This document shows positions 25,455-25,953 of a stretch of DNA of 64,000 nucleotides, in pieces. The stretch comes from Octopus vulgaris (Eukaryota): positions 7,874,001 through 7,938,000 of the forward strand of contig OX597814.1 in the NCBI GenBank assembly GCA_951406725.2, given 5' to 3'. The position numbers were made by a program, and so were the translations under genes. Below the pieces are notes generated by a model that worked only from the letters and a program-made list of their open reading frames with translations, did not search any database and was not told the origin of the DNA. Numbering within the stretch: the stretch's first letter is position 1; each line of letters opens with the position of its first letter.

Positions 25455-25953
<499 letters not shown>

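Follow-up and report, generated by a model that had tools for sequence, protein, structure and literature searches.

The window analysed here, a 64,000-nt stretch of Octopus vulgaris DNA, carries a hammerhead ribozyme motif in which the tertiary C3-G8 pair of the catalytic core is replaced by U3-A8, and the motif lies at the tip of a long hairpin beside a (TA)n microsatellite. The locus raises the question of whether this core is a product of decay or the norm of a family, and of what kind of element brought it there. We consider it likely that the locus is the end (pseudo-LTR) of a high-copy Penelope-like element (PLE) family that bears a dimer-cutting U3-A8 hammerhead, was inserted into (TA)n and was inverted at the hairpin closing the ribozyme. 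The PLE family is probably non-autonomous. We infer PLE mobilisation, dimer cleavage, the fold-back mechanism and low activity of the window copy.

The motif was a type I hammerhead on the plus strand at 25743-25783 (Table 1). Its core read UUGAUAA, GAAA was intact and the site triplet was GUC. Three helices surrounded the core, helix I was open and the helices followed the type I order. The initial annotation had read the core as UUGAUAA instead of CUGANGA with G5, A6, A9, G12-A14 and GUC intact, and this reading was confirmed at 25748-25754 and in the surrounding helices. All of the invariant core (U4, G5, A6, A9, G12, A13, A14, A15.1-U16.1 and H17) was present in the window copy. The 3-8 pair was Watson-Crick-compatible, being U3-A8 not only in the window copy but also in most of the family and in another copy that has diverged. 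Judged by sequence, the loop 1-loop 2 tertiary signature was also present, namely a 5' U in loop 1, a 3' A in loop 2 and an extrahelical pyrimidine.

Table 1. Features of the hammerhead repeat and its surroundings (positions within the window).
Feature	Position	Strand	Remark
First coding exon of host gene (probable)	23996-24030	+	ATG at 24018, phase-1 donor; read by eye
(TA)n microsatellite, (TA)22	25529-25572	.	Left end of insertion, likely target
Inverted duplicate of the element's 3' region	25573-25691	-	Mirrors 25833-25951; without tail on the left
5' arm of ~25-bp family-native hairpin closing extended helix I	25692-25716	+	Pairs with 25808-25832, 3/25 mismatched
Extended helix I, 5' side	25726-25747	+	Internal loop 1 UAC at 25739-41; strand 25743-47
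Helix I	25743-47/25779-83	+	5 Watson-Crick pairs
Catalytic core U3 U4 G5 A6 U7 A8 A9	25748-25754	+	TTGATAA in DNA
Helix II, 4 bp (G.U + 3 G-C), loop 2 CAAAUA	25755-58/25765-68	+	Position 10.1 is G; family mostly A
G12 A13 A14 A15.1	25769-25772	+	No variant among the best 40 of 75
Helix III, minimal palindrome (2 bp + 2-nt loop)	25772-25777	+	6-bp helix between two copies
GUC	25776-25778	+	Site triplet ending at C17
C17	25778	+	Predicted cut between 25778 and 25779, from descriptor position
Helix I 3' side and extension	25779-25797	+	Internal loop 1 U25785
Native hairpin 3' arm and 3' body of repeat	25808-25953	+	Last ~30 nt deepest, common to diverged families
One-sided tail	25954-25971	+	Ended at 25971 by LINE-associated repeat
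Next exon (probable)	37713-37910	+	Phase-1 acceptor, RRM-like, weak PARP14 RRM match

With both strands searched, this was the sole hammerhead descriptor match in the window. The loose descriptor produced 0.23 chance matches per shuffled window, or 0.07 with longer stems (30 shuffles). The canonical metazoan type I descriptor, with any 3/8 combination allowed, produced 0 matches in 300 sequences, each of 60.8 kb, generated by an order-3 Markov model, a rarity that is somewhat overstated as this descriptor was composed after the motif was known. The hammerhead motif is above chance. No hammerhead was reported by Rfam at gathering score across the whole window, nor at E<=10 across 25500-26000. 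The Rfam non-match is a miss of the library and not a defining biochemical feature, and its persistence even at E<=10 fits the earlier expectation that consensus searches would overlook this family. Taken on its sequence, the motif appears to be a type I hammerhead of genuine lineage, and self-cleavage is predicted.

The state of the family was read from public contigs aligned to 25680-26060 at a likeness of at least 80%, a threshold that favours window-like copies. Four of the 24 listed runs were used (X1, X4, X6 and X9), one for each of the organism labels A-D; the labels are possibly close relatives, and X1 is possibly from the same source as the window. The aligned contigs numbered 2,981 (X1), 2,534 (X4), 1,616 (X6) and 1,141 (X9), a depth that does not equal copy number. 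With thousands of contigs aligned, the repeat is abundant and diverse. Variants were given per position, without linkage.

Neither position 3 (25748) nor position 8 (25753) appeared among the best 40 of 75 variants in any of the four runs, despite the deep bin. The weakest of these 40 was at 25794, with 0.3-7.7% of depth and three to eight contigs per run. Since no 3/8 variant was found at this depth among the best 40 of 75, U3-A8 is the family majority, which is the outcome favoured by the initial annotation when it proposed aligning the genomic copies. A minority C3-G8 subfamily may be present among the remaining 35 variants. A diverged copy in X1 and X4 likewise read TTGATAA (reverse complement, read by eye). 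The aligned sequences support U3-A8 as a norm of the family and not a sign of decay.

Among the best 40 of 75 variants, eight fell within 25743-25783, and the 12 invariant core positions had none of them (random placement gives p = 0.045, a modest value calculated from a selected set). The sole core variant among the best 40 was at the free position N7 (25752; 8-10%). The wider region 25726-25797 contained 18 of the best 40 variants: five were unpaired, nine kept or created a pair alone, two were rescued by a partner variant that was also seen (G45-C81 to A-U and A37-U87 to G-C) and two broke a helix pair in the chosen register (25727 and 25732), though a shifted bulge can accommodate the latter. 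Two coupled changes were observed in the loops. In loop 2, a two-letter variant at 25762-25763 made up 17-32% of depth and retained the 3' A for the tertiary contact. In loop 3, positions 25774 and 25775 changed at matching shares in the four runs (20.4/20.7, 12.1/12.3, 18.1/18.1 and 24.7/25.1%), and this AU to UA swap (12-25%) preserves the helix III palindrome. Both double forms gave a 6-bp intermolecular duplex (-4.6 and -4.8 kcal/mol), which either single change abolished (+0.3 and +0.9). A coupled loop-3 change is the pattern expected under the double-hammerhead model as set out in the accessible text of PMC4209133.

The computed double-hammerhead fold scored lower (-24.2) than two monomers (-20.2), but the cofolded pair reached its minimum free energy (-28.8) in a different structure. 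Helix III was absent in the computed monomer fold. Position 10.1 was A in 73-84% of family depth and G in the window copy. With G10.1, the catalytic register of helix II had a probability of ~0.15 and a slipped register pairing A9 had 0.83; with A10.1, the catalytic register had 0.97-1.0. Because G10.1 slips helix II and the monomer forms no helix III, the window copy, standing alone with a 2-bp helix III and the minority G10.1, is probably a weak cutter as modelled. The initial annotation had held that two changes at exactly positions 3 and 8 argue for selection on catalysis rather than decay. That argument stands for the source element and falls for the window copy, which merely inherited U3-A8 and looks weakened.

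The element type was read from the anatomy of the insertion. An inverted repeat with arms of 168 nt (25571-25738/25786-25953), 90% complementary to each other, has the ribozyme at its tip; the outer arms had four mismatches in 121 positions. Other hammerhead-bearing contigs carried non-mirror letters before 25692 or 25707; the family's own hairpin is thus no longer than ~25 bp, and the long left arm was added to it as an inverted copy. Loose contig ends occurred before 25692 in X4, X6 and X9, and 25692-25716 is the probable inversion junction. Opposite-strand joints were found in single contigs at several places (25742, 25743 and 25800). On the right side, the tail continued past 25971 for ~24 nt in other copies, as shown in each of the four runs by 12-32 contigs with loose ends beyond this position. 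Since contigs run past 25971 into this common ~24-nt sequence, the right end has a tail of ~42 nt that is missing at the left.

Several of these features are those of PLE ends. An inverted, 5'-truncated copy with a junction palindrome was present, and so was a one-sided tail of the 30-40 bp class (18 nt + ~24 nt, ~42 nt). The accessible text of PMC3846280 describes PLE insertions with an inverted, shorter 5' pLTR, a junction palindrome that is explained by self-priming and, in some cases, a 31-bp tail. A one-sided tail of 30-40 bp and a (TA)n target bias are given in that of PMC8557442, and a tail defined by two RT start sites in that of PMC11167929. To judge from these texts, the octopus repeat is like PLE ends in its shorter 5' inverted copy, junction palindrome, one-sided tail, AT-rich or (TA)n target and hammerhead within the unit; it differs in that an RT-EN ORF or ORF start is unlinked and in that the junction palindrome is the stem closing the extended helix I of the ribozyme. 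The target-site duplication was unreadable, the left flank being microsatellite and the right flank being cut by another repeat.

At 25868 the two arms carry different letters, each of them common across the family; with this position polymorphic, two templates or recurrence fit better than a single fold-back. T25814, taken up as a rare letter common to both arms, was dropped: its partner 25710 was absent from the best 40 of 75 variants, and it may be a single change. A 20-nt near-palindrome (25907-25926, mirrored at 25598-25617) and a small stem-loop (25929-25942) were also seen in the 3' body. The terminal ~30 nt and the tail were common to diverged and to internally shorter families and may be the site that the mobilising enzyme recognises.

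Under the PLE explanation, the tertiary C3-G8 pair would have been replaced by the isosteric U3-A8 in the source element, with the Schistosoma-type loop 1-loop 2 contact retained, and all later copies would have inherited the change. Given the 2-bp palindromic helix III, cutting would be efficient only as a double hammerhead, with two units per transcript. Cutting of the double hammerhead after C17 would then release unit-length RNA. The window copy would be a 5'-truncated unit reverse-transcribed into the (TA)n tract, with an inverted copy of its 3' end on the 5' side and a tail confined to the 3' side. Self-priming or joining would most likely have taken place at the native 25-bp hairpin, and the ribozyme would have been left at the tip of the 168-bp hairpin.

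A PLE-type GIY-YIG remnant was found at 29230-29863 on the plus strand (Pfam GIY-YIG, E 2e-4), beside another (TA)n, so PLEs exist in this genome. The remnant is broken, follows (TA)n at 28786-28845 and has an Asn-rich stretch before a Cys-rich linker upstream, a linker that we take to be Neptune-like. No DNA match was found between the remnant (29.2-29.9 kb) and the hammerhead repeat. There was no linked PLE RT/EN reading frame in the 64-kb window, and a PLE ORF start was not evident in the 3' end of the repeat. A search for further copies in the window gave none; 22 nt at 57986 matched part of the repeat (E 0.41), but the helices were missing there. No tRNA-derived head of the repeat was found. 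Contigs from metagenomes, prokaryote genomes and viruses contained no match to the family-specific pattern. Loose patterns gave chance matches only: a 4-bp helix II was found in six of 114 viral matches (helix I unscored) and a full helix II in none of 25 metagenome matches.

Three other explanations were weighed. The foremost is a non-LTR retrozyme, whose short tandem unit is transcribed and cut from one hammerhead to the next, giving monomers and circles that a borrowed RT inserts again; the copy seen here would be a solo unit. It overlaps with the PLE explanation, since retrozymes have been proposed as non-autonomous PLE derivatives, and as a separate account of the locus we hold it to be unlikely. 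The canonical type I architecture and a unit of ~260-300 nt fit the retrozymes in the accessible text of PMC7229834, the ORF link is absent, and retrozymes are linked to pLTRs in the available part of bioRxiv 10.64898/2026.07.22.740005. A tandem-like joint from 25914 back to 25724 was seen in one contig each in X1 and X6, but this is a single contig in each of two of the four runs, with the intervening letters undefined. Against this account, no tandem is present at the locus, the whole window has one hammerhead, and the inversion and the tail are features of PLE insertions.

It is improbable that the family, although derived from a hammerhead, has lost cleavage; U3-A8 would then have become fixed in a master copy by chance and been carried along by hitch-hiking, or the structure would be kept for protein binding. 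Both C>T and G>A are frequent transitions, and a burst from a single master turns any letter into the consensus. In the accessible parts of the literature, PLE hammerheads are weak in vitro, eight of nine Xenopus dimers showed no cleavage (bioRxiv 10.64898/2026.07.22.740005) and anole PLE insertion in vitro did not need cleavage (PMC11167929). The variation in the contigs speaks against such a loss: subfamilies have diverged in the loops, N7 and the helices with pairing kept, the invariant core has no variant among the best 40 of 75, and the helix III palindrome survives a double change.

Least probable is a MITE or foldback DNA transposon with terminal inverted repeats at 25573-25951, a TA duplication and a hammerhead incidental in its spacer, which would suit the long complementary 168-nt arms, the TA on either side, the terminal ~30 nt that are deepest and common to other repeats, and the Tc1-like remnants in the window, but which is opposed by a right arm that extends through 25971 and beyond in other copies (so that 25953 is not a fixed end), by non-mirror sequence before 25692/25707 in hammerhead-bearing contigs, by opposite-strand joints at several sites, by copies that, with their right tail and variable left side, do not all have fixed terminal inverted repeats at both ends, and by a conserved-looking core, on which a DNA transposon exerts no selection as RNA.

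Both the U3-A8 swap and the hairpin-shaped insertion are already described, and what is new is the family that carries them. Covariation from C3-G8 to U3-A8 in several natural hammerheads, with in-vitro activity cited, is reported in the accessible text of Perreault 2011 (PMC3088659), and the 3-8 pair is described in that of PMC3884650; between them these texts state what the initial annotation had taken as established, a tertiary 3-8 pair and the activity of covaried cores in vitro. The double change in Perreault 2011 is identical and a rare variation among the examples, whereas it is the family majority in the octopus repeat. The accessible parts of PMC6155905 and PMC6962438 add nothing specific to the U3-A8 comparison.

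In Schistosoma mansoni, ~1,300 U3-A8 motifs have been tied to Cercyon PLEs (Cervera & De la Pena 2014; PMC4209133). As far as the text of that paper is accessible, these min-hammerheads are like the octopus family in their core covariation, in being high-copy metazoan type I motifs that are mostly single, in their predicted dimer-dependence and in being missed by a CUGANGA descriptor. Compared by text description, the Cercyon motifs are minimal (helix II of 7-8 bp, loop 1 poorly defined), whereas the octopus motif is canonical, with a 4-bp helix II, a CAAAUA loop, a UAC/U internal loop and a palindromic helix III. The octopus family majority at the first pair of helix II is A10.1-U11.1, whereas the same text calls G-C highly conserved.

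With the Schistosoma Sm-alpha type and the retrozymes, as described in the accessible texts of PMC2632901 and PMC7229834, the octopus repeat shares the CAAAUA loop 2, the internal loop 1 of U1 + UAC, the short palindromic helix III and a unit of a few hundred nt without an ORF. It differs from them in its U3-A8 core and in being a single copy here, not a tandem array. Most metazoan PLE hammerheads in the accessible literature are minimal; the canonical type seen in octopus is the one that Cervera 2020 gives for tandem retrozymes. The combination of a canonical scaffold, U3-A8 and A10.1-U11.1 was not found in the literature texts, although figures or supplements may show canonical U3-A8 forms. 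Relevant papers on hammerheads in Octopus described no such family in their accessible passages, none of those listed for hammerhead-bearing MITEs was evidently on it, and none was found for a C3U/G8A hammerhead or, on this subject, for twin priming of inverted Penelope repeats.

With the core swap already in print, knowledge of hammerhead chemistry is unchanged. Since neither Rfam nor CUGANGA descriptors detect this abundant family, ribozyme counts in such genomes are too low. Covariation in the 3-8 pair, the helix I pairs and the helix III palindrome forms a natural series on which the double-hammerhead model can be tested, and it bears on why PLEs keep hammerheads, a question left open in the accessible texts of PMC8557442 and PMC11167929. 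In addition, a single 400-bp locus shows how the stem closing a ribozyme could template PLE inversion.

Two phase-compatible exons (Table 1) suggest an intronic sense position, and from this sequence context the element probably lies in sense orientation in a 13.7-kb intron of a PARP14-like gene. The PARP14 RRM match (E 0.005) was below the cutoff, with 124 of 183 candidate frames scanned. Eight ORFs from the window had no exact match when looked up. A bolder form of the PLE explanation, which we put forward as doubtful, would make this an active, PLE-mobilised, non-autonomous family with a tertiary-stabilised canonical hammerhead in which U3-A8 and A10.1-U11.1 are fixed; the stem closing the ribozyme would double as primer for palindromic insertions, and intronic sense copies would be latent cut sites on ~145-bp dsRNA in host pre-mRNAs. 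If this were true, the AU-to-UA swap in helix III would prove, on comparative grounds, that cleavage in vivo requires the dimer, the loop-3 swap might sort subfamilies into separate dimer partners, and selection would favour weakened intronic copies such as the G10.1 window copy.

The remainder of the window contained other repeats. Many related LINE fragments with RT were present at 3474-14301, 26000-27550, 30500-34450 and 63600-64000, mostly on the minus strand, some of which matched a PHD finger and ended in (CAT)n; their tails may resemble octopus repeats. Helitron-like Rep fragments were located at 20860-23440 on the minus strand (Pfam Helitron_like_N, E 1.5e-13 at 20864-21100). A Tc1-like transposon occurred in two inverted copies (27566-28772 and 55577-56781), which were 87-97% alike by segment, with (TA)n beside each. 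An assembly gap of 100 N spanned 55159-55258. Finally, positions 1-3080 consisted of a 239-bp unit in 12.9 copies at 100% identity with a strong GC skew, either a very young satellite or an assembly artefact.
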